Assembly: GCA_041662125.1 (NCBI GenBank)
Contig: JBAZTA010000001.1
Coordinates: 324,761 to 388,760 of the forward strand
Direction of reading: 5' to 3'
DNA from: Candidatus Omnitrophota bacterium
GTDB taxonomy: Bacteria; Omnitrophota; Gorgyraeia; Gygaellales; Profunditerraquicolaceae
DNA: 64,000 bases
This document shows, one piece after another, positions 1 to 23,262 of the stretch. The notes below the pieces were generated by a model that worked only from the letters and a program-made list of their open reading frames with translations, made no database searches and had not been told where the DNA came from. The stretch's first letter is position 1, and every line of letters begins with the position of its first letter. The translations under genes were made by a program, and so were the position numbers.

Positions 1-872
1 ATCCCTTCAGGATAACCGGAGCCATCATAATGCTCATGATGCTGCCTGACTAAATCGATAACGCCATTTAAGAACGTCAATGGTTCTAAAATCTGAGCTC
101 CGGTGATCGGATGACGCTTCACCAATTCCCACTCTTCCGCGGTCAAAGAAGATGGTTTCATCAAAATACTATCTTCGATCCCAATCTTCCCGAGATCATG
201 CAATTCACAGGCTTCCCTGATCAATTCCGTCTCTTTAACCGACAAATGCATTTCCTGGGCGATTACCACGGCATATTTTGCAACATTCATTGAATGGCTA
301 TGCGTATAGTGATCCCGCGCATCAATAGCCTCAGCTAATGCCTTGATAGTGCGCATATAGGTCGCACGTAAATCCTGATATAAACGGGTCAGGTTAAGAG
401 TAGATTCCTCAATTCTTTTCGCAAGCAGCGTATTCTGCTTTTGCAAAGCATTATTTTGTTCTCTCTGGCCGTGGTAAGATTTCCGGGCACCGACTAAGTG
501 CGCGTGTAATTCAGCGCCCTTGTTAATCAAAAAAAGCAATTTATGCAGATCAAACGGCTTATGGATAACGCTGTAAATCCCCGTAATCGAAGCATCTTCG
601 GCTACCGAAGAATTTTTTTCATCAAGTGCCCCGATAATGACACAATCAGGGTCGATCATTCTGGCTTCTTTTAAAAACTTTGCGTCTTCCTCATCAAACT
701 CACCTATCGCATTCACCACAACATTAAAACCGCCCTGACGCAACGCCTCTAAAGCTTCTGTGTGATCGATTTTAAAAACACCGACATACCTTTTATCAAT
801 CAAGAGAGTCTCACGCACAAGGTTATTTGAAACTTCATCATTATCAATTACCAAGAACTTGACCTGCTCCAA
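1..872 (-). CDS. Response regulator with receiver domain fused to an HD-GYP c-di-GMP phosphodiesterase domain. The 3' end is truncated by the window edge; a TTG start follows a GGAGG RBS.
   Basis: Manual minus-strand translation gives LEQVKFLVIDND (receiver), then HD..HDLGK..HHEHYDGSGYPEG (HD-GYP motifs). GGAGG lies 7 nt upstream of TTG at 870-872. Confidence 0.8.
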   Translation of the reverse strand, partial: MEQVKFLVIDNDEVSNNLVRETLLIDKRYVGVFKIDHTEALEALRQGGFNVVVNAIGEFDEEDAKFLKEARMIDPDCVIIGALDEKNSSVAEDASITGIYSVIHKPFDLHKLLFLINKGAELHAHLVGARKSYHGQREQNNALQKQNTLLAKRIEESTLNLTRLYQDLRATYMRTIKALAEAIDARDHYTHSHSMNVAKYAVVIAQEMHLSVKETELIREACELHDLGKIGIEDSILMKPSSLTAEEWELVKRHPITGAQILEPLTFLNGVIDLVRQHHEHYDGSGYPEG

Positions 873-874
873 AA

Positions 875-2644
875 TTATTCCTCCGTTGTTATCCTCAAGG
901 CTTCTTCAAACGTGGTCAAACCTTCTCTTACCTTGACAAACGCGTCATCACGCAGCGTTTTCATCCCGCATTTTTCAATCGCATAAGCTTTAATCTCATC
1001 TATAGACTTCTTTTTAATGATCATTTCGCGCAAGAAATCATTGATCAACAAAGCTTCCAGGATAGCTATTCTACCACGAAAACCTGTATTATTGCAATAA
1101 CTACATCCAACCGCTTTATAAAAAATAACCTCTTTAGAAAGATCAGCTGCTCCAGAGGCATCTTTCTTATGTTTCCCCTTGGCTTCGGAATGAATAAAGC
1201 CGATACTCTCCAAGTAATCTTTGGGGAGCGTAATCGGCTGTTTGCATTTCGAGCAAATCCTGCGGCATAACCGCTGAGCGCAGACCATAATCAGGCTTGA
1301 ACCGACTAAAAAAGGCTCAATCCCCATATCAACCAAACGCGTAATACTCGTAATCGCGTCATTGGTATGCAAGGTAGAAAGGACCAACTGGCCGGTAAGC
1401 GATGCCTTGACAGCAATATCCGCGGTTTCAGAATCACGTATTTCCCCGATCATAATGATATCCGGGCTTTGGCGTAATAATGCGCGCAGGCCCGTAGCAA
1501 ATGTCAGCCCGATATCAGCTTTTACCTGTATCTGCGTTACGCCGCCAACTTGATATTCCACAGGGTCTTCAACGGTAATGATATTCCTTTCGGGAGTATT
1601 CAGCTGGGTTAATACCGAATACAGCGTTGTCGATTTACCGCTACCCGTAGGCCCGGTAACCAGGATCATCCCAAAAGGTTTAGCGATCGCCGCCTTAAAA
1701 ACATCATGCGGCGCCTGAGAAAAACCTAATTTTTCCAGGCCGATAGATAAAGTCCCTTTATCCAAGATCCTCAATACGAATTTCTGGCCGCCGGAAACCG
1801 GTAATCCCGAAACACGGAAATCAATTTCTTTACCTTCATAACGGATTTTAAACCTTCCGTCCTGGGGTATACGGTTCTCCGTAATATCCAATTCGGAAAT
1901 AATCTTAATACGCGCAATAACAGCGTTTTGTTTGCTTTTCGGGATATCAAACATCTCATGCAACGCTCCATCAATACGGAAGCGTATGCGTAACCCTTGA
2001 TCATCCGGTTCAATATGAATATCAGATGCCCTGCGTTTCAAGGCTTCAGTAATCATCAAATCAACCAATTTAACAATGAACGGCTTTTCGCTTTCCTGCA
2101 GCGCGCCAGAGATCTCAATATTCTCTTCTTTCATGACCTCGATGCTTTGTTTCTCCGTACTCCCCGCAGCATACGAGTCATCCTGCAAAAGTTGATTCAT
2201 TGAGTTTGTTTCGGCAGCATAATGAGTTTCAATAGCTTTAATAATCTCATCATACGGGCTTAATACAATATCGATATTAAAACCCGTAAGCGCCTTTAAA
2301 TCATCAAGGGCGAAGATATTAAGCGGGTCAGAGATGGCAACCGTCAAAGTTCTACCGATCTGTGAAAGCGGGATTACATTATATTGCCGGGCGATATGCT
2401 CAGGGATCAACTTGATGATTTCAACATCTACTTTATATTTCGCCAAATGGATCGTCGGGATATAGAGCTGGGTAGAGAGAAGCGAAAGCAGATTTTCTTC
2501 TGAGATAAACCCATTCTCGACTAAGACCCTGCGCAAAGAAACATGCTTCTGTTTTTGGATCAAGACAGCCTTCTCCAGCTGCTCCTGAGTCAAGTGTTTG
2601 CCCTTAATAAGTACATCGATTATCGTATCTTTGAGAGTTTGCAT
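875..2644 (-). CDS. GspE/PilB-family type IV pilus / type II secretion assembly ATPase (paralog A), with an N-terminal GSPII_E N domain.
   Basis: Walker A GPTGSGKSTT, Walker B DIIMIGEIRD and a C-terminal tetracysteine motif (CRRICSKC...GCSYC). The N-terminus carries an MshEN-like LIKGKHLTQEQLEKAVLIQ motif. Confidence 0.9.
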   Translation of the reverse strand: MQTLKDTIIDVLIKGKHLTQEQLEKAVLIQKQKHVSLRRVLVENGFISEENLLSLLSTQLYIPTIHLAKYKVDVEIIKLIPEHIARQYNVIPLSQIGRTLTVAISDPLNIFALDDLKALTGFNIDIVLSPYDEIIKAIETHYAAETNSMNQLLQDDSYAAGSTEKQSIEVMKEENIEISGALQESEKPFIVKLVDLMITEALKRRASDIHIEPDDQGLRIRFRIDGALHEMFDIPKSKQNAVIARIKIISELDITENRIPQDGRFKIRYEGKEIDFRVSGLPVSGGQKFVLRILDKGTLSIGLEKLGFSQAPHDVFKAAIAKPFGMILVTGPTGSGKSTTLYSVLTQLNTPERNIITVEDPVEYQVGGVTQIQVKADIGLTFATGLRALLRQSPDIIMIGEIRDSETADIAVKASLTGQLVLSTLHTNDAITSITRLVDMGIEPFLVGSSLIMVCAQRLCRRICSKCKQPITLPKDYLESIGFIHSEAKGKHKKDASGAADLSKEVIFYKAVGCSYCNNTGFRGRIAILEALLINDFLREMIIKKKSIDEIKAYAIEKCGMKTLRDDAFVKVREGLTTFEEALRITTEE

Positions 2645-2674
2645 ATATTAATCTTTAGTTTGACATTCTGTCCC

Positions 2675-4390
2675 CTATTCATCCGGAGCAGTGACGCGCA
2701 AAACTTCTTCCAGAGTCGTTAAACCACTTATAGCAACATCTAACCCTTGTTGCCGAAGCGTTCTCATGCCTTCTTTCCGTGCCTGCTGTTTAATCACATA
2801 TTCCTGCGCGCGTTCCAGGATCAATTCTCTGATTCGTACCGTCAGCAACAATACCTCCCCGATCCCGACTCTTCCACTATACCCCGTATTAAAACAGCGG
2901 GGACAACCTTTCCCACGGTAAAATTTCGCATTTTTTATCCCATACGCATCTAACTGAAGGCTTTGTATAACCTCATCACTAATACTATATTCTTCCTTAC
3001 AAGAAGCACAAATCTTTCGCAACAGCCTCTGCGCGACAACACATATCAAAGCAGAATTAATCAGGAACGGTTCAATACCCATATTCATCAGACGAATAAT
3101 AGCCCCACAGGCTGTCGTCGTATGCAAAGTCGATAATACCAAGTGGCCTGTCAAAGCGCTTTTGATCGCTATATCAATAGTCTCAAAATCGCGGATCTCT
3201 CCAACCATAATAACATTCGGGTCCTGGCGCAGGATAGAACGCAGAGCGCCCGCGAAAGTCAAACCGATATCAGGCCTTATCGTTACCTGATTTATTCCTT
3301 CGAGCTGAAACTCAACAGGGTCCTCTACCGTGACCAAGTTCTTATCCGGGCTATCCGTATACTTAAGGATCGAATATAATGTTGTCGTCTTGCCGCTTCC
3401 TGTCGGGCCACAAACCAGTATCATCCCGTGAGGAGACTTGGCTATCTTCTCTAACTTCGTGATCACATCTTCGGTAAATCCTAACTTTCTCACATCAAGC
3501 TTTGCCTGTGATTTATCCAACACGCGAATTGCCACTTTTTCGCCACAACTCGAAGGCAGTATTGATACCCGGAAATCAACCTCTCTTCCCATGATCTTTA
3601 CCTTAAAACGGCCGTCTTGAGGAAGCCGGTGCTCTGCGATATTCAGGTCTGACATAACCTTAATGCGGGAAACAATGGATTGATGGAGATTTTTAGGAGG
3701 GGACTGTTCCTCCTGTAAAATTCCGTCGACACGAAAACGGATACGTAATTTATTATCCCAAGGCTCAACAAGGATATCAGAAGCTTTCTTTTTAATGCCT
3801 TCCTCAAGGATCATATTAGTGATCTTAATGACCGGGGCCTCACGGCTGATAAATTTTAATTCCTGTTCACTCGGAGCGCTCTCTTTATCTTCTTTAATCA
3901 GCTCGATCGTCGAATCCGCCATCTCTTTAACCAGGCCGTCAATCATATCTTTGGTCGCCTCAGAATATGATTGTTCAAGAGCCTGCAGGATATCTTTACT
4001 GGAAGAAATAATCGGATTAATCTTGAAACCGGTAAGTGATTCTACGGTATCAATAGCAAAAATATTTAACGGGTCAGCCATGGCTAAGGTGACCGTATCA
4101 CCCATTTTAGAAACAGGGACGATTTGAAATTGTGTGGCGACATTAACGGGAATTATCTTGACAATCTCGGGGTCAATTTTGAAACGTTTGAGGTCAATAA
4201 GGGGGAAATTTAAACCTTCACTCAAGGCAGAAATAAGGTCATATTCTTTGACAAACTTCAAGTTAATAATAATATCGCTGAGCTTGCCTCCCTCTTTTTT
4301 CTGCGCTTCAATAGCCTCATTCAACTGCTCTTGAGTAAGCAGCTTATTTTTAATTAATATTTCTATGATCCTGTCTTTAAGTGAAATCAT
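2675..4390 (-). CDS. GspE/PilB-family secretion/pilus ATPase (paralog B).
   Basis: GPTGSGKTTTLYS, NVIMVGEIRD and CASC...CPRC motifs. The N-terminal domain carries ILIKNKLLTQEQLNEAIEAQ. Confidence 0.9.
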   Translation of the reverse strand: MISLKDRIIEILIKNKLLTQEQLNEAIEAQKKEGGKLSDIIINLKFVKEYDLISALSEGLNFPLIDLKRFKIDPEIVKIIPVNVATQFQIVPVSKMGDTVTLAMADPLNIFAIDTVESLTGFKINPIISSSKDILQALEQSYSEATKDMIDGLVKEMADSTIELIKEDKESAPSEQELKFISREAPVIKITNMILEEGIKKKASDILVEPWDNKLRIRFRVDGILQEEQSPPKNLHQSIVSRIKVMSDLNIAEHRLPQDGRFKVKIMGREVDFRVSILPSSCGEKVAIRVLDKSQAKLDVRKLGFTEDVITKLEKIAKSPHGMILVCGPTGSGKTTTLYSILKYTDSPDKNLVTVEDPVEFQLEGINQVTIRPDIGLTFAGALRSILRQDPNVIMVGEIRDFETIDIAIKSALTGHLVLSTLHTTTACGAIIRLMNMGIEPFLINSALICVVAQRLLRKICASCKEEYSISDEVIQSLQLDAYGIKNAKFYRGKGCPRCFNTGYSGRVGIGEVLLLTVRIRELILERAQEYVIKQQARKEGMRTLRQQGLDVAISGLTTLEEVLRVTAPDE

Positions 4391-4463
4391 GGTTTAACGT
4401 CAGGAATAGTTATAATCAAAACTTTTAACCATGGACTATAGACCATTGACCATGGACCAAGAA

Positions 4464-4922
4464 TTATTCTTTTCCTTTATAATATTTCTCAATTGCCCGT
4501 TTAATATCTGATAAGGTTGAAACAAATAATTGCACGCTGCAGCCGGAAAGCAATTCCACATCTTCTACCGCCTGTACATTCAAAGGATTAGACATTGCCA
4601 ACGTTAAATTATTTCCAATCTTATCGATGGGGATTATGAGGTATTGCCGGGCAACTCTGGCAGGAATGAGGTTGGCGATTTCAGCGCCAATCTCATAATT
4701 ACTTAAAGGAAGGTATGGAAAACCATACTGAACTGTTAACGCTTGAGCAATATCTTCTTCTTTGGCAAAACCCAATTCAACCAATACTTCGCCGATCAAG
4801 CCACCGCGTTCTTTTTGAAGATTAAGCGCTTTCTCCAGCTGGCCCTGGTTAATGATTCCGTGTTCAATAAGGACTTCACCTAACTGTTTTTTGATTATTC
4901 GCCTGATTTGCATAGCTTTCAT
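4464..4922 (-). CDS. Standalone GspE N-terminal (T2SE_Nter / MshEN-like) domain protein, a putative c-di-GMP receptor.
   Basis: The 152-aa protein has two tandem 24-residue motifs, QLGEVLIEHGIINQGQLEKALNLQ and LIGEVLVELGFAKEEDIAQALTVQ, matching the MshEN c-di-GMP-binding consensus. Confidence 0.7.
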   Translation of the reverse strand: MKAMQIRRIIKKQLGEVLIEHGIINQGQLEKALNLQKERGGLIGEVLVELGFAKEEDIAQALTVQYGFPYLPLSNYEIGAEIANLIPARVARQYLIIPIDKIGNNLTLAMSNPLNVQAVEDVELLSGCSVQLFVSTLSDIKRAIEKYYKGKE

Positions 4923-4974
4923 CTTTTCAAAGCGCCACTCCTGCCATCTCCATACAAATGCGGACGCCTTGCTG

Positions 4975-6402
4975 CTACACTAAAATACGGTTTTTGCCCT
5001 GTTTTTTTGCCTGGGCCAAAAGCTCTTCAGCTTTTGAAAGCAACTCTTCGGCAGTACTGCCATCAAGAGGATTTTCGCTTAAGCCTCCGCTGACCGTAAG
5101 CCGTCGATTCGTGTCGCTTTCTTGTTTAAAACTTTTTTCTAGATTTTCCCGAATGCCTTCGGCTATTTCTTGCGCCTGCCGTTTATTTTTCTCCGGGAAA
5201 ACAATAGCAAACTCATTATCGTCAAATCGAGCCACGCGGTCAATCTCAGTGACAGAATCCCTGATCAAATACGCGATTTTCTTTAATTGCTCATCCACTG
5301 CTGCCGCATCAACCAAGCTTCGATATTTTACAAAATCATCAATATTCAACAAGACCAAAGAACACGGCCGCTGCCTGACTATTGCCCTGCGAATTTCTTC
5401 TTGCAGCCGTATTAAAATATATGTTTTATTATATAACCCGGTAAGCGTGTCTTTGACTTCCAGCTTTTCCACACGTTGAATAAGCCTCTCATGTTCAACA
5501 GCAATAGCTATTTGCTTGGTAAAAATATCGAGCAATTCCACGTCATCTTTCGAATATGAGAAATTATCTTTGGAATTCCCGACCCCCAGTATTCCAACAA
5601 GGTTTCCTTTTACATAAACCGGCAATGCCAGGGTATTCTTAACTTGGAATCTCTCATAAAAATCTGAAGCCACCTGGTCAGGCCAAACATTATCCTTATC
5701 CAAACACAACTGTTTCCCGGATTTTATCAGAGCTTCAAACAATGGTTCAGAAGAACCCATCGTAATTTTGAATAACCCCTGATAATTTTTTCCTTCAGCT
5801 GAACGCATATACAATGTTTCTTCCAATTCATCCTTAAAGAACAAATAGGAAATTTCCGAATCGGCAAGAAAACGCGCCTTTTCAGTAACTAATTTCAGTA
5901 CCGCATCCAGCGTAACACCTTGAGAGATCAAAGAACTTATCTGTAATAAATGCGTAAAAACAAAAACATGCTGCTGGATGTTCAGGTTTATTTCACTGGT
6001 TTTCTGGCTATAACTCTCTAACTCCTCCATATTACTACGGATACGGCTGGTAAGCTGGTTTAATGTTTCTCCCAGGATACCGACTTCATCAAGAGGCGCC
6101 ATACTCACGGCATGATTGATATTTCCCGAAGATATTACCTGGGCATCCGTTGTAACAATAAGGAAACGGTTAATGATCTGATTAATCAATAAAACACCAA
6201 TACCAGCAATAAATACCGAACTCAACAAAAAAAGCATTATCTGGAAAGTAATGCCTGTTTGAGGGAAAACATAGTTTGCAAGTAAATAGATAACGACAAG
6301 AAAGGGAAGGACAAATATCAGGCAAAAAGCAATACTGAGTTTATCTTTAAGTCTTCTTGATTTTATCAACAGCTTATTGCTCTTTAACACATTTGCCTCC
6401 AC
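4975..6402 (-). CDS. Membrane sensor protein with 2 TM, HAMP, GAF and a degenerate GGDEF domain (predicted catalytically inactive). A GTG start is annotated; an internal GTG is also possible.
   Basis: TGLYNKTYI and LLNIDDF match the GGDEF fold, but the A-site reads RFDDNEF instead of RYGGEEF and the I-site RxxD is replaced by TEID. Confidence 0.8.
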   Translation of the reverse strand: MEANVLKSNKLLIKSRRLKDKLSIAFCLIFVLPFLVVIYLLANYVFPQTGITFQIMLFLLSSVFIAGIGVLLINQIINRFLIVTTDAQVISSGNINHAVSMAPLDEVGILGETLNQLTSRIRSNMEELESYSQKTSEINLNIQQHVFVFTHLLQISSLISQGVTLDAVLKLVTEKARFLADSEISYLFFKDELEETLYMRSAEGKNYQGLFKITMGSSEPLFEALIKSGKQLCLDKDNVWPDQVASDFYERFQVKNTLALPVYVKGNLVGILGVGNSKDNFSYSKDDVELLDIFTKQIAIAVEHERLIQRVEKLEVKDTLTGLYNKTYILIRLQEEIRRAIVRQRPCSLVLLNIDDFVKYRSLVDAAAVDEQLKKIAYLIRDSVTEIDRVARFDDNEFAIVFPEKNKRQAQEIAEGIRENLEKSFKQESDTNRRLTVSGGLSENPLDGSTAEELLSKAEELLAQAKKQGKNRILV

Positions 6403-6610
6403 ATACGAACAGCTTACATACCATTCATTACTTTAACAAAAAAGCTATCTTTCTACGGCCGAACCCGACTTAAAAAAACAATTTATGTATATTTATTATA
6501 CTACGCATCTTCTTTTATTTCAACAAATTAATGAAGCCATGACTTATGGAGCCATCAATTATAATTAAGCGACATAAGTCATCACTTGTAGCTTACTTGC
6601 CGGGCTGAAT

Positions 6611-6661
6611 TATCCTCCGTAGCCCTACCATCATTTTTCTTATCGATAGGCGCAGGAGGAT
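6611..6661. repeat. Repeat family C, copy 1: a stem-enclosed hairpin element about 50 nt long.
   Basis: The 40-nt core agccctaccatcatttttcttatcgataggcgcaggagga is 34/40 identical to 49574-49613. The flanking inverted repeat tcctccg/cgcaggagga covaries with ttcttcg/cgaagaa in copy 2. Confidence 0.6.
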
Positions 6662-6671
6662 CATGAAACCA

Positions 6672-8426
6672 TTACTCAGCACAATCTTTAATCTCCTGGT
6701 CAACAGCTTCCGCCTCACGCTTGAGAAAATCCTTGCCGACTCCCATATCGATAAAATCCCAAGGTAAAACCTCATCTCTGCTTCTATTCTGCAAATAAAA
6801 CTGTGGATCAATATCACACTCTCGAAAAGCATCCATCCACGTTTGAAGGTTAAAATATTCACCCCAGGCATCAAAGCGCGCGCCTTTCGAAAACGCTTTT
6901 AAGATAACAGCGCTTAGTCTGCGGTCTCCGCGCGACAACACTCCTTCCAGAAAACTCATATCCAGATGATGAAAATCAATTTTTAATCGTTTATTTCTTC
7001 CCTGCCCCCTTATATAACCCTGCTTTTCTTTGAGAGCAGCAATCGTATCCATCGCAAACCACTGAAACGGCGTATGAGGTTTAGGGATAAGAGGATTAAT
7101 ACTTATATTGACTTGCGCGGGCCCGGGGCTGAACTTTCTCTTTAATTCCGAAACCCGAGTTGCCAGTTCAATAATCCCATCCAAATCTTTTTTTTCTTCA
7201 AAGGGTAATCCGATCATAAAATAGAGCTTAACATGCCGATATCCATTGGCGTAAGCCTGTTCAAGAACCCGAAAGAATTCTTGGATATCATAATCTTTTG
7301 CCAGTATCCTTCGCAGCCTTTCACTGCCTGCCTCAGGAGCAAAAGTCAATCCTGTTTTCTTTATACTGGCGATAAGCGTTGAAAGATGCTGCAGGATAAA
7401 TTTCGGTTTTATTGAAGGCAGCGACACCGATACGGCATCTTCTTGAAACTTGCCAACCAATGACTGCAATAATATCTCTAACCCTGTATAATCGCTGACA
7501 GACAATCCCGCCAAAGAAATTTCTTCATAACCCGTGCGTTTATATAATTCACACGCCAAATGCAAGGCCTTTTCAGCATCCCGCTGCCGGAAAGGAAAAT
7601 ATTGGACCCGCGCCTGGCAAAAACGGCATCGGTTCGGGCACCCGCGCATAACTTCAAGAGTGATACGGTCATGAATAATCTGTATATACGGGATAAGCCA
7701 ATCCAGAGGATATGGGGATTTATTTAAATCTCCTACGATGCGCTTTTTAACCCTCACAGGCACTCCCGGGTATTTTGGCTTAAACTCTTTTATTACCCCG
7801 GACTCCAGAGAGGTAACCGAATACAATGCCGGGACATAAACACCTTCAATACCTGAGAGCTTTATAAGAAGCTCAATTTTTTCAGCATCACTTTTTTTCC
7901 AGGCATGATAACAATCAATGATTTCCACGATAGCCTCTTCCGCCTCACCGATAACAAAGAGATCAAAAAACTCATGCATCGGCTCAGGATTCAATACCCC
8001 CGGGCCTCCGCCGATAATCAAAGGATAGCTTTTATCCCGCGCACTCGATTGCAGAGGAATAGAGCCGAGCTGCAGCATATTGAGGACATTCGTGTAATGT
8101 AATTCATATCCCAGAGAAAAACCAACGATATCGAACTCCTTAAGCGGCCTTCCTGATTCCAGAGAGAATATTTCCTGATTCTTCTCCCGTAAGACTGCTT
8201 CTAAATCAACCGCGCAGGCAAAAAAACGCTCGCATGCCACATAGGTAAGTTTGTTGAGGATATCATAAATTATCCTGATACCAAGATTGCTCATCCCCAC
8301 ATCATATAAATCGGGAAAACATAAAGCAAATTTTACCTCAGCGCAGGAAATATCTTTTTGAGACATATTCCATTCCCTGCCGATATAACGAGCCGGCTTT
8401 CGCACTTGTAATAAGAAATCTTCCAT
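6672..8426 (-). CDS. B12-binding-domain / radical SAM protein (TIGR03960-like uncharacterized rSAM family).
   Basis: N-terminal VRKPARYIGREWN signature and a CxxxCxxC cluster, GCPNRCRFCQ. Length 584 aa. Confidence 0.8.
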   Translation of the reverse strand: MEDFLLQVRKPARYIGREWNMSQKDISCAEVKFALCFPDLYDVGMSNLGIRIIYDILNKLTYVACERFFACAVDLEAVLREKNQEIFSLESGRPLKEFDIVGFSLGYELHYTNVLNMLQLGSIPLQSSARDKSYPLIIGGGPGVLNPEPMHEFFDLFVIGEAEEAIVEIIDCYHAWKKSDAEKIELLIKLSGIEGVYVPALYSVTSLESGVIKEFKPKYPGVPVRVKKRIVGDLNKSPYPLDWLIPYIQIIHDRITLEVMRGCPNRCRFCQARVQYFPFRQRDAEKALHLACELYKRTGYEEISLAGLSVSDYTGLEILLQSLVGKFQEDAVSVSLPSIKPKFILQHLSTLIASIKKTGLTFAPEAGSERLRRILAKDYDIQEFFRVLEQAYANGYRHVKLYFMIGLPFEEKKDLDGIIELATRVSELKRKFSPGPAQVNISINPLIPKPHTPFQWFAMDTIAALKEKQGYIRGQGRNKRLKIDFHHLDMSFLEGVLSRGDRRLSAVILKAFSKGARFDAWGEYFNLQTWMDAFRECDIDPQFYLQNRSRDEVLPWDFIDMGVGKDFLKREAEAVDQEIKDCAE

Positions 8427-8455
8427 ATTTAGTAAAAAGTCTGTTTCAATTACCG

Positions 8456-9556
8456 TTATGCCCGGGAATTACTAATATTCGCCAGTATCCCGAGAGCAAC
8501 AAAAGTCACAAAAACCGATGAACCGCCGTAACTCATTAATGGCAGCGGCAGCCCTACCACCGGAGCCAGCCCTAAGTTCATCGCGATATTAATAAGAACC
8601 TGCACCCCTAACATATACGAAATACCAAAAGCCAATAACTTGCCGAACGAATCATAGGTACGTTCCGCTATTTCAATGCCCTGCTTAATTAAAAGAAAAT
8701 ATAAACCGAATAAGATAACACATCCCAAAAAACCCCATTCTTCTGAAAAAGAAGCAAATATAAAATCAGTATGGGATTCCGGCAGAAAATGCAACTGGCT
8801 TTGTGTCCCTGAAAGCCACCCCTTTCCAAAGAATCCACCGGAACCAATCGCTATTTTTGACTGAATAACGGTATAGCCGGCTCCCAGCGGATCAATATTA
8901 GGATTCATGAAAACAAGCAGGCGGTCTTTCTGATAATCCCGCAAGTAATGCCAAAAAACCGGGAGCAGCAAACAAACGCCACCCAATAACATTAAGAAAT
9001 ACTGGATCCGGACATTTGCCATAAAGAGCATCGTAACAAAAATACATAAAATCATGATACCGCTTCCTAAATCAGGCTGTTCGATGATCATTGCAACCGG
9101 CACAGCCACAAAAATAAAAGGCAAAATAAACGCCCTCCAGAGGCCAAGATTGCTTATTTTCAAAGAAACGTTATCAAGTGATTTGAGGCTGAAATACCGT
9201 GCCAGGAATACCACCACGATCAATTTCATTAATTCAGTCGGTTGAAAATTAAACCAGCTGAATTTAAGCCAACGCTGCGCCCCCAATCGTACAATGCCCA
9301 GCATAAACACTAAAAATAATAAAGAAACAGCAATACCGTATAACACATACGTCCAATCCCAAAACCGGCGATAATAAAATCGTGACATCATGAGAAAACA
9401 GACAATCCCAACAATAACCCAAAGCAATTGTTTCTGGGCAATTGACTGCCAGAGTTGGCCTTCTTTTTGATACGTACTGCTATAAATCGAAATAAGCCCG
9501 ATGCTAGAAATTAAGATAGCGATAACTAAAATTTTCAGCCCTTCTCTATTCATCAT
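8456..9556 (-). CDS. rodA: SEDS-family peptidoglycan glycosyltransferase RodA. The start is trimmed to MMNREG, and its ATG overlaps the mrdA stop.
   Basis: Polytopic FtsW/RodA/SpoVE-family sequence lying directly downstream of PBP2 and mreBCD. Confidence 0.85.
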   Translation of the reverse strand: MMNREGLKILVIAILISSIGLISIYSSTYQKEGQLWQSIAQKQLLWVIVGIVCFLMMSRFYYRRFWDWTYVLYGIAVSLLFLVFMLGIVRLGAQRWLKFSWFNFQPTELMKLIVVVFLARYFSLKSLDNVSLKISNLGLWRAFILPFIFVAVPVAMIIEQPDLGSGIMILCIFVTMLFMANVRIQYFLMLLGGVCLLLPVFWHYLRDYQKDRLLVFMNPNIDPLGAGYTVIQSKIAIGSGGFFGKGWLSGTQSQLHFLPESHTDFIFASFSEEWGFLGCVILFGLYFLLIKQGIEIAERTYDSFGKLLAFGISYMLGVQVLINIAMNLGLAPVVGLPLPLMSYGGSSVFVTFVALGILANISNSRA

Positions 9557-11265
9557 ATAATTCCTTCCTGAACCATTGATTCTATGATCTGCTTTGCGAT
9601 CAAACAAGAATAGTATCCCGGGCCTCCTCGCTCTAAGAATACACACATGACATATTTCGGTGATTTAAAAGGAAAAAACCCGCAAAACCAGGCGTGTGAC
9701 GGGCCGCCAGCAGCTTGAGCGGTACCGGTCTTGCCGGCAACCTGTACCGGAAGCGTAGATAAGATATTGGCGGTACCCTTAGGATAAGCAACAACGCCGC
9801 GTAACCCCTGGCGGATGAGTTCCATCGAGCTTTCCTTGATAGGCAGGCTAACCGATTTTCTCTGATAAACAGACACATCTTTTCCCGCGATAGCCTTAAC
9901 AATACACGGAGTAAGAAGCTTGCCTTTATTTGCAAAAACCGCCATCATTCTAACCATCTGCAAGGGAGTCACCAGAACATCACCCTGCCCTATGGAGAAA
10001 TTAGCCGTATCGCCTTCATACCAGCCTTTAAATTTGTGAATCTTTTTTAAAAGAGAGCTGGGGATATACCCGCTTAATTCATACGGCAACTCTATGTTAG
10101 TCGGCTTTGCTAAACCAAACTTTATCGCGTAATCATAGAGTGTTTGTGACCCAAGCATGAGACCGGTTCGATAAAAGAAAACATTGCACGAATGCGCGAT
10201 TGCCGCGACAATATCCTGTGAGCCGTGGGTATTCCAACACCCAAACCGTTGCCTGCCTACATACCACTGGCCCTCACAAAGAAAGGAGGTATCAGAATTA
10301 ATTTTGCCTGTTTCAAGGCCTGCAGTAGCGACGATCGGCTTAAAAATTGATCCCGGCGGATATAAACCGCTGATCACTCGATTTAATAAGGGAGACGTCG
10401 GGTCATTAAAAACGCCGGATATCTCCTGATGGGATTGTTTTATGAATATCGACGGATCAAAGCTGGGGCTGCTTGCCATTGCCAGTACTTCTCCCGTAAG
10501 AGGGTCCAGAATAACCACCCCCCCTTTTTTGTCAATCAGGCTGTTTTCAACAATCTTTTGTATCCTCAAATCAAGAGTCAATTGTATCTCTTTACCATTC
10601 TTTGGAGGCTGGAAACCAAGTACGCGCACAAACCTGCCGCGCCGGTCTACCTCTACCGATGTTCCCCCATCTTCTTCCCTCAAGAAATAATCGTACTTTT
10701 CTTCAATACCTCCAAAACCTACGATATCTTTCGTCTTATATCCGTAATCCTCCAATTTTGTCAGGCGCCAACGGTCAATCTCATTTAAATAGCCGATCAC
10801 ATGCGCGGCAAGCGCTCCGTAGGGATAATCCCGTAAAGGATGCGGCTGCACGATCACGCCGGGAAAATCTAATTTAAGCTCTTCCAGCGCTATTGCTTTT
10901 TTTATATCGATATTTTTTGCAACAACTACCGGAATACTGGAAGATACCAAATTTGCTTTAAAAGTGTTCCTCAAATCTTTTACGCTTCGTTCAAGCAGTT
11001 TTGACAAAGAAAAAAAAGTCCTATCTAAATCAAAGGCTTCTTGAGGTAAAACCAAAACATCATAGGAAAGGACACTATCAACGATCACACTGCCCTGCCG
11101 ATCAATAATCCTTCCCCTGCTTCCTGCCTGAGGGATAAGCCGGATGCAATTCTTCTTGCTTAAGACCGCATACTGCCTGCCCTGGAAAACCTGTAAATGC
11201 ACAAGACCCGCCGCAAGAAAAAGAAAAATGACTACCACTCCTATAGTTGCAACCTTTACCCTCAT
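9553..11265 (-). CDS. mrdA: Penicillin-binding protein 2 (elongasome transpeptidase).
   Basis: N-terminal TM and dimerisation domain; transpeptidase motifs SIFKP (SxxK), SCN (SxN) and KTGTA. Confidence 0.9.
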   Translation of the reverse strand: MRVKVATIGVVVIFLFLAAGLVHLQVFQGRQYAVLSKKNCIRLIPQAGSRGRIIDRQGSVIVDSVLSYDVLVLPQEAFDLDRTFFSLSKLLERSVKDLRNTFKANLVSSSIPVVVAKNIDIKKAIALEELKLDFPGVIVQPHPLRDYPYGALAAHVIGYLNEIDRWRLTKLEDYGYKTKDIVGFGGIEEKYDYFLREEDGGTSVEVDRRGRFVRVLGFQPPKNGKEIQLTLDLRIQKIVENSLIDKKGGVVILDPLTGEVLAMASSPSFDPSIFIKQSHQEISGVFNDPTSPLLNRVISGLYPPGSIFKPIVATAGLETGKINSDTSFLCEGQWYVGRQRFGCWNTHGSQDIVAAIAHSCNVFFYRTGLMLGSQTLYDYAIKFGLAKPTNIELPYELSGYIPSSLLKKIHKFKGWYEGDTANFSIGQGDVLVTPLQMVRMMAVFANKGKLLTPCIVKAIAGKDVSVYQRKSVSLPIKESSMELIRQGLRGVVAYPKGTANILSTLPVQVAGKTGTAQAAGGPSHAWFCGFFPFKSPKYVMCVFLERGGPGYYSCLIAKQIIESMVQEGII

Positions 11266-11774
11266 GCCTCTTCCACCTTAAGCTCTTCGTCAAGCGGCTT
11301 GTGAATACGCAAAAACGGACCTGATACTTTAAACACTGCCGGAAGAATCAAAGCGGTATACAGCGACTCAATGACTGCGATACGTAACAAATGCAGAAGC
11401 GCGATACCGTTTCCATCAAAGAAAAATATCATATGAGTAATAATGCCATTACAAAACGTAATGATGCCTACTGCCAGAGTGGAAAATAACCGCTGTTCCA
11501 GGGAGATCTTACGCTTAAGATGCATAATAATAAAGCACCAGAGCGGAAAAATAAGCGTATTAATCCCGACTGGATACACATTGAGAACATCTTTTATCAT
11601 ACCGGCACATACGCTTAAGAATAATGCCTGCTTTCGAGGAAAAGACATGGCAATAATAAACACAACCGCCAAAAGGATATCGGGCATAACGCCAAAAACC
11701 TTCAGGTAACTCAAGATTGTTGCCTGTGCCAAGGCAAAAACCACTATAAGAATCAAGAAAAGCCTGGTTTTCAT
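11262..11774 (-). CDS. mreD: Rod shape-determining protein MreD.
   Basis: Small polytopic membrane protein between mreC and mrdA. Confidence 0.7.
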   Translation of the reverse strand: MKTRLFLILIVVFALAQATILSYLKVFGVMPDILLAVVFIIAMSFPRKQALFLSVCAGMIKDVLNVYPVGINTLIFPLWCFIIMHLKRKISLEQRLFSTLAVGIITFCNGIITHMIFFFDGNGIALLHLLRIAVIESLYTALILPAVFKVSGPFLRIHKPLDEELKVEEA

Positions 11775-12544
11775 TGCATTATGATTAATACTTCTTCTAA
11801 ACTGGAAAGATTAACCGAGGGTTTAATAACAGCATAGCTGCTGAGGCCTACAAATTCTTTCCCAAAATCGACAACCGTGCCGATCATCAATCCTTGAGGA
11901 TAGTTTCCGGTAAGCCCGGAAGAAATCACAGGATCATTGATTTTAATATCACAATCTTTCGGCAGATATTTCATGATCAGAAAACCGCCCAAGCTTCCTG
12001 AAACAAGCCCTTCCTGCCGGCTGCGCTGATCAAGGGCAGAAACCCCAAGACTGGGGTCATTGATCAAAATGATCTTGCTGACAAAATCAGTGACTTCAAA
12101 GACCCTTCCCGCAAGCCCTGCTTCGGTAACGCAAACATACCCCTTTTTAATACCACTGGACCTGCCCTTATCGATCATAATAGCCGACGACCAATTTGAG
12201 GGGTCCCGCGCGATAACACGCGCCGCAATCATTTTAAATGAAGATTCCTGTTTCAAAGAAAGCAACCCCATTAACCGCTTATTCTCAAGTGCAACTTCGG
12301 TTGCTTCATTGAGCCTGCTTTTTAAGGCGTCAAATTCTTTTTGCAACAAGGAGTTCCTGACATAATTACGGTGATAGAAAACAATCCCGCGTATTTCCCG
12401 GGCAACTAAACTCACAACTGTTAAAGGCAGCTTCAGGATGATCAATAGCGGATTACGTAAGGCAGGGACAAACGAGGAAAGCAAAATAATGATAAACGCA
12501 GAGAATAAAAATGAAGTTATGTTTTTCTTATTAACGTTAAACAC
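11771..12544 (-). CDS. mreC: Rod shape-determining protein MreC.
   Basis: N-terminal TM, coiled coil and a C-terminal beta domain (GLAGRV...GLMIGTV); lies after mreB. Confidence 0.85.
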   Translation of the reverse strand: MFNVNKKNITSFLFSAFIIILLSSFVPALRNPLLIILKLPLTVVSLVAREIRGIVFYHRNYVRNSLLQKEFDALKSRLNEATEVALENKRLMGLLSLKQESSFKMIAARVIARDPSNWSSAIMIDKGRSSGIKKGYVCVTEAGLAGRVFEVTDFVSKIILINDPSLGVSALDQRSRQEGLVSGSLGGFLIMKYLPKDCDIKINDPVISSGLTGNYPQGLMIGTVVDFGKEFVGLSSYAVIKPSVNLSSLEEVLIIMQ

Positions 12545-12590
12545 ATTTCACTGTATTGACAGGATTACGTGAGGTTTGCCGGCTTAAACC

Positions 12591-13664
12591 TTAAGAATGC
12601 ATCTCAGATTTGACCGGAACCGTCACTTTCTTTAAATAATGGAGCTCATTTAATACTTTGCCTGTTCCGCAGACCACGGCAGTTAAAGGATCTTCAGCGA
12701 TATGGACCGGCAGGCCTGTTTCTTCCGAGATCAGTTTATCGATTCCCCGTAAGAGCGACCCGCCGCCTGCCATAACAATCCCATGTTCAATAAGGTCTGC
12801 AGCCAATTCAGGAGGCGTGCGTTCCAGAGAGATCTTGGCGATCTCAACGATCGCGCGTAAAGGTTCCTGCAACGCCTCGCGTATTTCTTCTGAGCTGATA
12901 GTTACGGTTTTCGGCAAACCAGCGACCAAATCCCTCCCCTTGACCTCCATGCTCAATTCGTCTTCCAAAGGATACGCCGATCCCAATTTTATCTTTATTT
13001 CTTCAGCAGTCCTTTCTCCTATCATTAAATTATATGTTTTCCTTAAATATTCAATGACCGCCTCATCCATTTCATCGCCGCCAATACGTATTGATTTGGA
13101 AAACACAATACCCGCAAGAGAAATAACTGCGATCTCCGTAGTGCCACCTCCGATATCAATGATCATATTGCCTATCGGTTCCTGAATAGGCAACCCCACA
13201 CCTATCGCCGCAGCGATCGGTTCTTCGATCAAAAAGACCTCCCGGGCACCGGCCCGTTCTGCGGAATCCTTGACCGCGCGTTTTTCAACTTCCGTGATAC
13301 CGGAAGGAATCGCGATCAAAATACGCGGCCTTACTAAAACCCGGCGATGGTGCACTTTTTTAATAAAATACCGTAACATGGCTTCTGTTATTTCAAAATC
13401 AGCAATGACCCCGTCTTTCATGGGCCGGATAGCCACAATATTGCCCGGAGTACGGCCGAGCATCCGTTTTGCCTCTACCCCGACTGCTAACACATTAGAA
13501 CTTCCCCTCTCAATGGCGACAACAGAAGGTTCTCGCAGTACTACTCCTTCCCCTTTTACGTAAACCAGGGTTGTAGCAGTGCCTAAATCAATACCCATAT
13601 CATTAGAGAATAAGCCTAAGATATAGTTGAAAAATGTTTTGGCTATATCTTTAATTTTTGCCAT
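12591..13664 (-). CDS. mreB: Actin-like rod shape protein MreB.
   Basis: [13 protein letters not shown] phosphate-1 motif, [11 protein letters not shown] and actin-fold motifs. Confidence 0.95.
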
Positions 13665-13877
13665 AAGACTCTCCTTGATGAGTAGAAATTTTACCTGCTT
13701 AAAGCGCTAAAGGAAGACAGAGAAACGGCAGTTACGCTTATCAGGCCACGTATGATTTGATTTAATAGAGGGATTAAACCCTTTATCAATTAAGGTGTTG
13801 TAATGAAGAAGACTATACCATATAAAAGAAAACCGGTCAAACAAAAATTTACGCTAAAAGTTATTATTCTTAAGCGC

Positions 13878-15221
13878 TTAAGGCATCATTTGCTTCAGTC
13901 GAACCAAGAAATCGGGAAAAGATTTATTCATACAGGCCACATCATCAACAATTGTTTGGCCTTCTGCCCTTAAACCAGCTACCACCATACTCATTGCAGT
14001 GCGATGATCACCAAAACTTTTAACCTTGGCACCGCGCAATCCTCTTTGGCCTTCAATAACGATATTTTCAGCCAAACCTTGCTTTTGAATAGTTATATGC
14101 GCACCCATTTTTTTTAAATTCTGCGTCATTGAGACAATCCTATCGGTTTCTTTAACCCGTAATTCCCTGACGGATTGAAACACGCTTTTACCCTGGGCAA
14201 AACAAGCAGCTACCATAAGGATCGGCAATTCATCGATCAAAGACGGCACTTCATCTTGAGTGACTGTCGTGGCTTTTAACATACGAGACTTCACCATAAT
14301 ATCAGCTACAGGCTCCTCACCCGCTGCCTGAACAGGCAGGAGAGAAACTTTCAAAAAAGCCCCCATTCTCTTTAAAACTTTCACAATACCGCTGCGGGAA
14401 GGGTTAAGGCTGACTTTCTGAATAATGATACAAGAATCAGGCACAAGCGTTGCAGCAACCATAAAAAAACTCGCGGAAGATATATCCCCGGGAACATATA
14501 TTTTCTTAGGAGAAATAAGCTCCTTATTGCCCCGGATGGATATTTTATTATGCTTGATCTTTATATCCGCTTTAAATAACGAAAATATCCGCTCTGTATG
14601 GTCACGGGTCTTAAGTGGTTCAATAACTTCAGTAACCCCTTGTTTGGTAAAAAGAGCTGCCAGCATGATCGCAGATTTCACCTGCGCGGAAGCAACCGGT
14701 AACCGGTAGTGAATAGGCTTAAGGTTTCCACCGTGTATGGTAAGGGGAGGATATTCTTCCGGGTGAGCAACATGAGGTTTATGGCGAGCGATTATCTGCG
14801 CTCCCATCATCCGTAACGGCCGGGTAACACGCAACATCGGCCTTTGTGAAAGTGATTTACCTGCTACCAACGTAACTTTAAAGTCACATCCCGCTAAAAC
14901 GCCCAGCACCAGGCGTAATGTCGTTCCGGAATCACCCACAAAAACAGGAGAAGACGGTTTCTTTAAACCAAAAATCCCTTGACCGAATACGGTTACCGTA
15001 TTACCAGTCAAGGGATTAAAGTTTTTAACTATCCTTACACCTAATTTACGTAATACTTCCAGTGTATAAAGGCAATCTTTATTTACCGGGAAGTTTTCTA
15101 TTGAAGTCTTTTCTTTTGCCAGAGCGCTGGCGATAATACACCGATGAGCTATAGATTTATCACCGGGGACACTCACGGTGCCCCGCAGATAAGGTATTGG
15201 CTTGACAACACATGACTTCAT
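13878..15221 (-). CDS. aroA: 3-phosphoshikimate 1-carboxyvinyltransferase (EPSP synthase).
   Basis: GTVSVPGDKSIAHR and VGDSGTTLRLVLGVLAG motifs; length 447 aa. Confidence 0.9.
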   Translation of the reverse strand: MKSCVVKPIPYLRGTVSVPGDKSIAHRCIIASALAKEKTSIENFPVNKDCLYTLEVLRKLGVRIVKNFNPLTGNTVTVFGQGIFGLKKPSSPVFVGDSGTTLRLVLGVLAGCDFKVTLVAGKSLSQRPMLRVTRPLRMMGAQIIARHKPHVAHPEEYPPLTIHGGNLKPIHYRLPVASAQVKSAIMLAALFTKQGVTEVIEPLKTRDHTERIFSLFKADIKIKHNKISIRGNKELISPKKIYVPGDISSASFFMVAATLVPDSCIIIQKVSLNPSRSGIVKVLKRMGAFLKVSLLPVQAAGEEPVADIMVKSRMLKATTVTQDEVPSLIDELPILMVAACFAQGKSVFQSVRELRVKETDRIVSMTQNLKKMGAHITIQKQGLAENIVIEGQRGLRGAKVKSFGDHRTAMSMVVAGLRAEGQTIVDDVACMNKSFPDFLVRLKQMMP

Positions 15222-16027
15222 TTAGCTTTTTGTATAACCTTATCGCCTTCACTCACTTTATCCTTTGTCTCGGTGGATACAAAGCCAGCCGCTGACATAG
15301 AATCGTGAATCTTTTCTATTTTAACGTCGCCGATGTAATCAGGCCCGTGATAAACGGAAAAAACATCCCCGATATCAATTCCTTCTTTTTTGCCTAAATT
15401 GGTTACCACAAAATTGTAATCTTTATTGATTACCAGGACCTTACCTTCTAATTTTGCAGAGGCATCTTTCTTGGGAACTTCGGCACCGGTTTTACCAGCA
15501 GTTGCTCCTCCAACAGCGCCTTCGGGGCTGACAACGATCTTGCCCAACTCGATCTTATGCGCTTGGTCCTCAAGCTCTTTTACCTTTTTCTCTAAAGCAA
15601 GCCGTTTTGACTCGATATCTTTGGATTGCGCCTGCATTTTAGAAAGCTCATCTGAAGTCTCATAAAACATTTTCTCCAAATAAGCTTTAGACTTCTTCTG
15701 TTCTTCTAATTGAGCATACATCTGGTCTATCTGCGAAAGAGCATCTTTTCTTGCAGATTTCTCCTGTTCTAAAGACAGCGTGATTTTCTCGCTTTGAAGA
15801 CGGGCTTCCTGCAATCTATTTTCCAGAGTAGCTATCTCTTTCTTAGCTGCTTTGAGATTTTCTAAAACTTCAAGCTCCTTGGCTTTTACGGCTTCTAATT
15901 GCTGCTGCACGCGGACTTTTTCATTACGTTCATTTTGCAATAAATAAAACGTTCCTCCCGCTAACCCCAAAGAAATTAAGATTAAAACTATTAAAATTAT
16001 TACGGAAGTCTTTCCTCTACTACCCAT
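15218..16027 (-). CDS. Hypothetical membrane-anchored coiled-coil protein with a C-terminal beta-rich domain. The start is trimmed to MGSRGKTS to remove the overlap with rluD.
   Basis: N-terminal TM (VIILIVLILISLGLAGG), about 150 aa of heptad-rich QLEAVKAKELEVLENLKAAKKEIATLENRLQEARLQ, and a C-terminal VLVINKDYNFVVTNLG...GDVFSVY domain. Confidence 0.5.
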   Translation of the reverse strand: MGSRGKTSVIILIVLILISLGLAGGTFYLLQNERNEKVRVQQQLEAVKAKELEVLENLKAAKKEIATLENRLQEARLQSEKITLSLEQEKSARKDALSQIDQMYAQLEEQKKSKAYLEKMFYETSDELSKMQAQSKDIESKRLALEKKVKELEDQAHKIELGKIVVSPEGAVGGATAGKTGAEVPKKDASAKLEGKVLVINKDYNFVVTNLGKKEGIDIGDVFSVYHGPDYIGDVKIEKIHDSMSAAGFVSTETKDKVSEGDKVIQKAK

Positions 16028-16094
16028 ACTCTCCTCCTTTTTTTCTGACCTTCGGACTACTATATCATTTCTTCTCAAAAAAGCAAGGGATTTA

Positions 16095-17018
16095 TTATCC
16101 CTTATCAAACTCAAGCTTAATAAAATCCTTAAACTCCTGAGGAATATCACAGGAGAATTCTATAAACTTGCCCGTAACCGGATGAGTAAACCCCAGAGAC
16201 CGCGCATGCAAGGCTAAACGGCTAAACTGATTATTTTGGCCGTATTTCTTGTCCCCTAAAATCGGATGGCCCATATAAGCCAGATGCACCCGCAATTGAT
16301 GAGTCCTGCCGGTAAAAGGCTCTAACTCTAGATAACTGAAAGTTTTACTTCGTTTTAGGCTGCGATAATACGTTTTGGCAAATCGAGTGTTCTCTCCAAA
16401 ATTAACGGACATATTTTGCCTTTTGTCAGGATGGCGGCCAATGGGCAATTCAATAATACTTTCATTAAATTCCATCCGCCCTTTCACCAAAGCGGCATAA
16501 TGGCGCTTAATCGTATGTTGCGCGAATTGCTTCGATAATGCCAGATGGGCAAGGTTGTTTTTTGCGACGACCAATATTCCCGAAGTATCTTTATCAAGCC
16601 GATGGACAATACCCGGCCTTTGAGGGTTAATGTCAGACAACTGTTTAAAATGATGTAAGAGCGCATTCACCAAGGTATGCTCAAGATTACCCGGTGCCGG
16701 ATGAACTACCAGCCCCGTTGGTTTATAAATAACTCCAACGTCTTTATCTTCATAAATAATATCAATAGGGATATCTTCCGGCTGCAAAAGGCTTTCTTCC
16801 TTATCCTGGACACATACCGTAATCACATCTGCGGCCTTAACTTTACCATGGGCTTTAAGAGCCGTCTCTTGAGCGAGGGAAACATTGCCTTGAGCTATTA
16901 ATTTCTGAATAAACATGCGGGAAAAACCAAGTTTTTCTTTAGCAAAAAAATCCATCAGGCACATATCCAACCGTTTTCCAGCGTTTTCGGGTAATACGGT
17001 AAGAGTGTATTCTTTCAT
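16095..17018 (-). CDS. rluD: 23S rRNA pseudouridine synthase, RluD/RluA family with an S4 domain.
   Basis: HRLDKDTSGILVVAKN catalytic motif. Confidence 0.9.
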   Translation of the reverse strand: MKEYTLTVLPENAGKRLDMCLMDFFAKEKLGFSRMFIQKLIAQGNVSLAQETALKAHGKVKAADVITVCVQDKEESLLQPEDIPIDIIYEDKDVGVIYKPTGLVVHPAPGNLEHTLVNALLHHFKQLSDINPQRPGIVHRLDKDTSGILVVAKNNLAHLALSKQFAQHTIKRHYAALVKGRMEFNESIIELPIGRHPDKRQNMSVNFGENTRFAKTYYRSLKRSKTFSYLELEPFTGRTHQLRVHLAYMGHPILGDKKYGQNNQFSRLALHARSLGFTHPVTGKFIEFSCDIPQEFKDFIKLEFDKG

Positions 17019-17055
17019 AGAAGGTAGTTATAGTGAGAAGAACAGTACGCTAAAT

Positions 17056-17511: not shown

Positions 17512-17514
17512 ACC

Positions 17515-17898: not shown

Positions 17899-17899
17899 T

Positions 17900-22497: not shown

Positions 22498-22512
22498 GCC
22501 TTTATACGATTA

Positions 22513-23181: not shown

Positions 23182-23262
23182 CTTTAAACAAAGCCGGCTT
23201 TAAAACGATCACAGAAAAATGGTTTAACTGGAATATTATATACTATAAATTATCAGGGTCAA

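Follow-up and report, generated by a model that had tools for sequence, protein, structure and literature searches.

Two PilB paralogs and a separate, predicted c-di-GMP receptor at a probable type IVa pilus motor locus of Omnitrophota

The five-gene block discussed here lies at positions 1-6402 of a 64,000-nt stretch of a Candidatus Omnitrophota genome (GenBank assembly GCA_041662125.1, contig JBAZTA010000001.1, positions 324,761 to 388,760); we call this whole stretch the window and count positions from its start. The closest described counterparts of the block are the pilB-pilT-pilC loci of Geobacter and Myxococcus, the ATPase MshE of Vibrio cholerae, the motor PilF of Thermus thermophilus, and the complexes through which cyclic diguanylate (c-di-GMP) input reaches the pilus ATPases of Xanthomonas. 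The c-di-GMP-binding MshEN domain consists of two 24-residue motifs joined by five residues; in V. cholerae MshE, the changes G11I, G11L and G40I abolish c-di-GMP binding while changes at Arg9 or Gln32 cost at most five-fold, and XpsE, which has G11V and G40L, does not bind (PMC5013675). PilF carries three GSPII/MshEN domains in one chain; in the second of these, GSPII-B, a lysine and a leucine replace the two arginines and the domain binds at 6 nM; the same study extended the motif consensus to (R/K/L)LG... (PMC11731258). In Xanthomonas, PilT/PilU are the site of a complex made up of the REC-HD-GYP protein RpfG, GGDEF proteins and an adaptor of the PilZ type, which is independent of cyclase activity (PMC3749722); a second published complex of Xanthomonas is FimX-PilZ-PilB (PMC8389850).

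We consider it moderately probable that the Omnitrophota block is the part of a type IVa pilus (T4aP) locus that encodes the motors and their regulators, and that a predicted c-di-GMP receptor acting in trans gates two PilB paralogs with divided roles. Like the Geobacter and Myxococcus loci, it encodes PilB proteins that bear MshEN domains, Walker, Asp and His boxes and a tetracysteine, and the adjacent pilC, the pilMNOPQ genes and the pilins of those loci are seen here in related loci; unlike them, it has two tandem PilB paralogs and no PilT in the locus, its PilB N-domains are without the binding glycines, and the pocket is found in a separate MshEN protein of 149 residues. As in PilF, the motor comes with several MshEN-type domains and only some of them (here by prediction) bind c-di-GMP, but here they are distributed over three polypeptides. 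The Xanthomonas complexes resemble it in that c-di-GMP input reaches the pilus ATPase through separate adaptors, the ATPase N-domain itself being non-binding, and in the presence of an HD-GYP regulator and GGDEF proteins, which there act by protein contacts; they differ in that the predicted adaptor here is an MshEN protein and not PilZ or a degenerate EAL protein, the receiver appears non-phosphorylatable, and the putative partners and the motors share one predicted operon.

All five open reading frames (ORFs) were confirmed from the ORF list and by reading the sequence. They lie on the minus strand and encode, in order of transcription, a HAMP-GAF membrane protein with a degenerate GGDEF domain (4975-6390, or to 6402), the stand-alone MshEN (GSPII) protein (4464-4913, the ORF extending to 4922), PilB paralog 1 (571 residues, 2675-4390), PilB paralog 2 (589 residues, 875-2644), and a pseudo-receiver/HD-GYP protein (1-872) that is cut by the window edge after the N-terminal 290 of its approximately 355 residues; the spaces between the genes are, in the same order, 61, 73, 30 and 2 nt. 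Profile searches of the five proteins (Pfam and NCBIfam) recovered the domains described in an earlier sequence-only reading of this DNA, which had also recognized the co-oriented layout correctly. The arrangement is not a matter of chance, for at least 11 independent contigs show this order of genes.

The stand-alone MshEN protein and its signalling neighbours

In Pfam, the stand-alone protein matches MshEN only (74 bits), and it scores 62 bits against the NCBIfam c-di-GMP motif domain NF053729 (cut-off 38). Its sequence matches in the PDB are PilF (the best, E 1e-46), the PilB N-domains of Geobacter and Myxococcus, and MshE (5HTL). An AlphaFold2 model had only MshEN/GSPII structures as significant Foldseek matches (template modelling score ~0.4), the best being 5HTL, PilF GSPII-A/B, the Xanthomonas PilB-N/PilZ complex and the N-domain of XpsE. 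Because the confidence of the model is moderate (mean predicted local distance difference test score 69), it was used for fold assignment only; the predicted fold is a four-helix N-subdomain followed by an alpha/beta C-subdomain, as in MshEN.

We then compared the pocket residues of the three MshEN-bearing proteins in 120 orthologs of each, using MshE numbering according to the published motifs. In the stand-alone protein, glycine is kept at G11 in 119/120, at G18 in 115/120, at G40 in 120/120 and at G47 in 115/120; L10, L25, L58, Q32 and Q61 are each present in all 120, and position 54 is isoleucine in all 120. Set beside MshE, then, the protein has the same two-subdomain fold, the two 24-residue motifs with their five-residue spacer, and L10, G11, G18, L25, L29, Q32, G40, G47, L54 (as Ile), L58 and Q61; it differs in not being fused to an ATPase and in having glutamine for Arg9 and leucine for Arg38, and its binding is a prediction from sequence. 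Each half satisfies 10 of the 11 relaxed motif positions (the first positions are Q, then L), and the leucine that opens the second motif matches that of PilF GSPII-B, where it goes with very high affinity.

The ATPases present another picture. Among the orthologs of paralog 1, the residue at G11 is Thr, Ile, Arg or Lys and never Gly, G40 is Ser and Q61 is Gly; among those of paralog 2, G11 is Ile or Val, G40 is Arg or Lys, and R9 is Asn. Not one of the 240 ATPase orthologs has glycine at G11 or G40. In the window itself, the two motifs begin QLG...LIG in the stand-alone protein, RII...KLS in paralog 1 and TII...SLR in paralog 2, which places isoleucine at the G11 equivalent of both ATPases and Ser (paralog 1) or Arg (paralog 2) at that of G40. 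With these two glycines replaced, the ATPases carry the type of substitution that kills binding in MshE. To judge from these residues, the stand-alone protein keeps its predicted c-di-GMP pocket and both ATPase pockets are degenerate; the earlier statement that each ATPase has its own MshEN-like motif is right in that the domain is present and overstated in that the glycines essential for binding are lost. The same split between an intact stand-alone protein and degenerate ATPases is found in three distant loci of our comparison, L086 (REC-MshEN-PilB-PilB-PilC), L088 and L089.

Comparison of the stand-alone gene with its ortholog in L082, the locus of a close relative, gave 34 nucleotide differences, 34/34 of them synonymous, and no amino-acid change; the same comparison gave 32 and 39 amino-acid changes in the two ATPases and 53 and 65 in the two signalling proteins. 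On this substitution pattern, the stand-alone MshEN gene is under very strong purifying selection. We had considered whether such a protein is new in itself and rejected the idea: stand-alone MshEN proteins are common in the protein universe, and proteins of 145-215 residues make up many of the best 150 representative MshEN clusters. What is new is the division of labour between proteins and not the stand-alone architecture.

Some relatives carry further MshEN genes. In L046, a second stand-alone one (8758-9216, motif RLGEIL...) separates PilB paralog 2 from pilC, where the window has its HD-GYP gene, and L088 has two in tandem ahead of the ATPase. Several proteins of 1,000-1,345 residues (P0363, P0367, P0370, P0383 and others) have up to seven MshEN-like stretches, far exceeding the three domains of Thermus PilF.

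Of the two signalling proteins, the first has hydrophobic segments at residues ~18-45 and ~53-83, followed by HAMP (22.7 bits, just under the cut-off), GAF (49.6 bits) and GGDEF (105 bits) domains. Its start is likely to be the GTG at 6390, since GGAGG lies 5 nt ahead of it and the gene calls in relatives give 471 residues. The sequence-only reading had called its GGDEF domain degenerate, and this is confirmed: it has DDNEF as its signature and TEID where an I-site would read RxxD, and all seven orthologs are degenerate as well (DDNEF, GDNEF, GEKEF, TEDRF, NDDEF, EDDKF and GDNCF, with I-sites TEID, SDID, SEIE and SEVD). With such motifs, the domain can serve neither as a cyclase nor as a receptor through its I-site. 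The HD-GYP protein, which starts with TTG 2 nt past the stop of paralog 2, matches HD_5 (66 bits) and HD (51 bits), with Response_reg at 19 bits (cut-off 30); its C-terminal 65 residues lie outside the window, and the full-length ortholog was read in L082. The HD-GYP motifs are intact (HDLGK and HHEHYDGSGYP), and the phospho-acceptor Asp of the receiver is Asn in the window and Asn, Ser or Lys in orthologs, which makes the receiver, on sequence grounds, non-phosphorylatable.

The distant locus L089 (5090-12379) is laid out differently: an apparently active cyclase (RYGGDEF, with RxxD and no GAF) is the gene immediately ahead of MshEN, the only PilB and PilC, and past the cassette come PilS/PilR-like genes for a PAS histidine kinase and a sigma-54 response regulator. 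This layout suggests an ancestral chain of cyclase, receptor and motor, and L089 possibly preserves the ancestral state of the module in the window.

These observations bear on whether c-di-GMP acts on the motor at all. The stand-alone protein might instead be a decoy or adaptor at a docking partner of PilB (PilM, PilC or a PilZ-like protein), with c-di-GMP having no direct part in the motor. Its GSPII C-subdomain is complete, and in the PilB-N/PilZ complex of Xanthomonas and in GspE-N/GspL this is the part that binds the partner; these partner complexes are among its structural matches. Moreover, both consensus arginines are replaced, the GGDEF domain is dead and no cyclase is nearby. However, the residues critical for binding, including the four glycines and both glutamines, are invariant or nearly so in the 120 orthologs, and since docking has no need of those residues, the invariant pocket weighs against a mere docking domain; PilF GSPII-B binds tightly without the arginines, an HD-GYP protein with intact motifs is encoded in the same predicted operon, and in L089 an intact cyclase stands beside the stand-alone MshEN gene. 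We therefore think an adaptor role of this kind rather unlikely, and prefer to see in the protein the c-di-GMP receptor of the pilus motor.

The two PilB-type ATPases

Both ATPases have an N-terminal MshEN domain and a T2SSE domain (458 bits in paralog 1, 439 bits in paralog 2) in Pfam. For paralogs 1 and 2, respectively, the best-scoring NCBIfam model is that of PilB (TIGR02538), at 636 and 616 bits, although below its equivalog cut-off of 675.65; the GspE model (TIGR02533, cut-off 630) gives 604 and 580 bits, and pilT_fam (cut-off 319) gives 181 and 190 bits. Walker A, the Asp box, Walker B and the His box are present in both ATPases and in the 120 orthologs of each, as is the tetracysteine CxxC...CxxC (120/120 for each). 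Identity as PilT or PilU is ruled out by the size of the proteins (571 and 589 residues), the MshEN domain, the tetracysteine and the low pilT_fam scores, in agreement with the original assignment as PilB/GspE-type ATPases and not PilT. Nor do they qualify as GspE, as they fall below the TIGR02533 cut-off and their neighbours in relatives are PilM, PilN, PilO and PilX, not GspL/GspM.

The paralogs share 45% identity. A neighbour-joining tree places them in two parallel clades whose internal branching matches, a pattern indicative of an ancient PilB duplication, and in several loci the two genes overlap or abut. Paralog 1 is marked by LVCGPTG and LHTTTA. Paralog 2 is marked by RQSPD in place of RQDPD (115/120 orthologs) and by TGQ in place of TGH in the His box (94/94 orthologs matched by the regular expression), i.e., Gln for the first His; these changes beside the catalytic motifs (TGH to TGQ/E, RQDPD to RQSPD) also occur in the distant L086. 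Paralog 2 of the window further has, at residues ~505-528 (window ~1060-1130), a charged insert of ~17 residues, SEAKGKHKKDASGAADL, between the two CxxC pairs; the insert is shared with L082 only, and the other orthologs are without it.

We looked for the arrangement in 80 GTDB-representative PilB loci of many phyla and found tandem full-length PilB together with a stand-alone MshEN only in Omnitrophota-type loci, so the impression that tandem PilB paralogs with an N-domain-only protein are unusual holds outside Omnitrophota. Many of the non-Omnitrophota loci, including all of the Desulfuromonadota, Myxococcota and Firmicutes ones, have a PilT of ~365 residues as the next gene after pilB. None of the Omnitrophota-type loci examined has PilT; paralog 2 occupies the slot after pilB instead.

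This position, together with the conserved changes beside its catalytic motifs (seen in L086 too), could mean that paralog 2 does not serve extension and is a regulatory or low-activity subunit of the ring, or a retraction-like antagonist in the pilT slot. Its full PilB architecture, with N-domain and tetracysteine, and its low pilT_fam score (190 vs 319) argue otherwise, as does K02669 (pilT), which appears with pilB, pilC, pilD and pilM in two of the gene sets in the supplement of the published Omnitrophota study. The idea that paralog 2 substitutes for an absent PilT is speculative and is weakened by those gene sets, and we regard a role other than extension as improbable.

Pilus genes beyond the window edge

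No PilC, PilM, PilN, PilO or PilQ gene was found in the 64-kb window by tblastn with Omnitrophota pilus proteins and by Pfam searches of 36 ORFs, and no credible prepilin was found by a prepilin regular expression, tblastn and the same Pfam searches; 13 ORFs at ~25.3-39.9 kb were covered by tblastn and the regular expression rather than by Pfam. The sole match of the regular expression (37247-37432, plus strand) starts 37 residues into a 61-residue ORF that lies within the minus-strand cell-wall gene cluster, and was judged spurious as a hidden pilin.

What lies past position 1 was judged by proxy, from the contigs of relatives. The five close ones are L082, a 70-kb Joint Genome Institute (JGI) contig, L083, L084 and L085 (ATPase 2 identities of 93, 93, 68, 67 and 65%, respectively), and all five share the order MreB-MreC-MreD-PBP2-RodA-radical SAM (TIGR03960)-GGDEF-MshEN-ATPase-ATPase-HD-GYP. 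In all five, the next gene is PilC (T2SSF, 400-412 residues), which starts 50-80 nt past the HD-GYP stop or overlaps the HD-GYP gene. Colinearity with L082, at ~85% nucleotide identity, extends to the very edge of the window (window 1 = L082 12644). The HD-GYP gene of L082 stops at 12840 and its pilC occupies 12894-14096, so that pilC is expected ~250 nt outside the window. Indeed, pilC immediately follows the cassette in every relative with downstream sequence. In L003 and L046, MshEN-PilB-PilB is followed by PilC, a coiled-coil protein, a pilin, PilM, PilN, PilO, a gene in the PilP position, the secretin (PilQ) and RNase G; L001 has HD-GYP, PilC, pilins, PilX and PilM in this order; and in L002, L004 and L005, PilC comes after the cassette, with pilin genes directly next in L002 and L004.

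The close relatives differ from these in having an rRNA operon after pilC: L082 shows 16S (14505-15126), and L084 has a complete operon, 16S-tRNA-tRNA-23S-5S, at 14541-20372. In the nearest relatives it begins ~400 nt past pilC and separates pilC from any further pilus genes. We expect an rRNA operon just outside the window as well; because it follows pilC, the pilins and PilMNOPQ of this lineage would have to be encoded elsewhere.

By synteny, then, the five genes would be the cytoplasmic motor and regulatory head of a T4aP gene cluster whose structural remainder is elsewhere in this lineage, and their apparent lack of pilus genes comes from the window ending inside the HD-GYP gene. T4aP are near-universal in Omnitrophota (PMC10066038). 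The sequence-only reading had described a c-di-GMP/ATPase module with no pilus genes and of unknown output, and had named Pil genes immediately past the edge as what would undo that description; the synteny of the relatives, by proxy, places such genes there, and the description fails. Its observation that pilus structural genes are missing is true within the 64 kb and is an edge effect beyond it, and its suggestion of a machine encoded elsewhere suits the pilins and PilMNOPQ of this lineage but not pilC, which is adjacent in relatives.

The same neighbourhoods speak to what kind of machine this is. A type II-like secretion or pseudopilus system, exporting, for example, large surface or effector proteins, in place of a surface pilus would agree with GspE scores that come near those of PilB, all of them below cut-off, and with the report that Omnitrophota giant-protein loci are often flanked by type II secretion or type IV pilus genes (bioRxiv 10.64898/2026.06.07.730766). 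The partners encoded in relatives, however, are PilM_2, PilN, PilO, a secretin and PilX-type minor pilins and not GspC, GspL or GspM, and within the window the locus has neither a giant ORF nor an exoprotein gene next to it; a system mainly for secretion is accordingly doubtful. An orphan c-di-GMP-gated ATPase module, with no dedicated platform and with an unknown output or a machine unrelated to the locus, is very improbable: the window holds no pilus structural gene and the nearest relatives have only pilC adjacent before the rRNA operon, but pilC directly follows in the five close relatives and in L001, L002, L003, L004, L005 and L046, the full pilMNOPQ-pilin set is contiguous in L003 and L046, and the window's end inside the HD-GYP gene accounts for the absence.

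Gating of the motor, its setting and its meaning

If the T4aP motor reading is right, the stand-alone MshEN protein would be the c-di-GMP receptor of the machine and would gate pilus extension by acting in trans, either on the hexamers of PilB or at the site on PilC/PilM where these dock. The HD-GYP enzyme would lower local c-di-GMP, and the membrane HAMP-GAF protein with its degenerate GGDEF domain would be a scaffold or a signal input, not a cyclase. The two PilB paralogs may divide the motor role by forming a mixed ring or alternative rings on one PilC; one paralog as a modulator would be a further way of sharing the work. More tentatively, we suggest that the c-di-GMP sensor has moved off the ATPase to a dedicated and extremely conserved MshEN subunit of 149 residues that acts in trans, together with a motor of two co-evolving PilB paralogs (a mixed hexamer or exchangeable rings); a T4aP motor with such a split sensor and two paralogs would, if true, be without described counterpart. 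Neither a PilB duplication nor a separate MshEN gene is mentioned in PMC10066038, in bioRxiv 10.64898/2026.06.07.730766 or in the MshEN literature searched.

Several points weigh against this picture of a trans-acting receptor on a pilus motor. The glutamine that opens the first motif of the stand-alone protein is unlike any MshEN variant tested in publications. The N-domains of the ATPases do score above the NCBIfam cut-off for the c-di-GMP motif (51 and 40 bits vs 38), and they might bind c-di-GMP non-canonically. The 64-kb window encodes no active diguanylate cyclase. In addition, the adjacency of pilC in the window's own genome is deduced from relatives and not seen directly, and in the nearest relatives the pilins and PilMNOPQ are not found within 10 kb.

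As to expression, a hairpin scan found no terminator-like hairpin on the minus strand between any of the five genes. The best sigma-70-like promoter match (TTGAAA-17-TATAAT, minus strand, 6495-6523, 11/12 matches) falls within the 269 nt that separate the GGDEF gene from the radical SAM gene upstream of it; because such sites are no more numerous in the region than in shuffled sequences, only its placement is suggestive, and the terminator scan is at chance level too. Neither a c-di-GMP riboswitch nor any other Rfam family matched window positions 1-9000 at E<=1.

The rest of the 64 kb is chromosomal housekeeping (mreBCD, PBP2, rodA, ftsA, IleRS, riboflavin genes, ligA, ftsK and PNPase, by Pfam), the cell-wall and division genes at ~25.3-39.9 kb being assigned by position and by PBP2- and RodA-like tblastn matches only. 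The pilus motor cassette is persistently linked to mreB-mreC-mreD-PBP2-rodA (window 6672-13664; L002, L003, L082-L085 and L089), even in the distant, single-PilB L089, and in closer relatives the TIGR03960 B12-binding radical SAM gene stands between the mre-rodA genes and the cassette. Further along, ftsA (23263-24516) ends a run of division genes and is followed by yggS/ylmE and proC (window 21631-24516). No ORF in any frame of the 64 kb carries the FtsZ/tubulin signature GGG[TS]G[TSAN]G, so that ftsZ is missing from the position behind ftsA that it usually has. Three minus-strand ORFs have no Pfam match at E<=1e-5: 15218-16150 (310 residues), 24533-25324 (263 residues) and 45869-46408 (179 residues); the second of these occupies the expected position of ftsQ, upstream of ftsA. 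Nearly all genes of the window are on the minus strand, and every 2-kb bin has a negative GC skew (-0.08 to -0.24); strand bias and skew are consistent with a single replichore whose genes are co-oriented with replication.

Omnitrophota are uncultured and mostly ultra-small bacteria, and their type IV pili are believed to attach them to the cells of hosts or prey (PMC10066038). The locus is of relevance to specialists in pili and c-di-GMP, and not as the orphan system that the title of the earlier account announced. Its pilus genes look "missing" as an artefact of the place at which the window stops. If our reading is true, the pilus motor of Omnitrophota is wired unlike the textbook pair of PilB and PilT, with two PilB paralogs and a detachable c-di-GMP receptor, and it would offer a test case both for the transfer of a signal from an MshEN domain to a hexameric ATPase and for the way in which paralogous extension ATPases share one platform.

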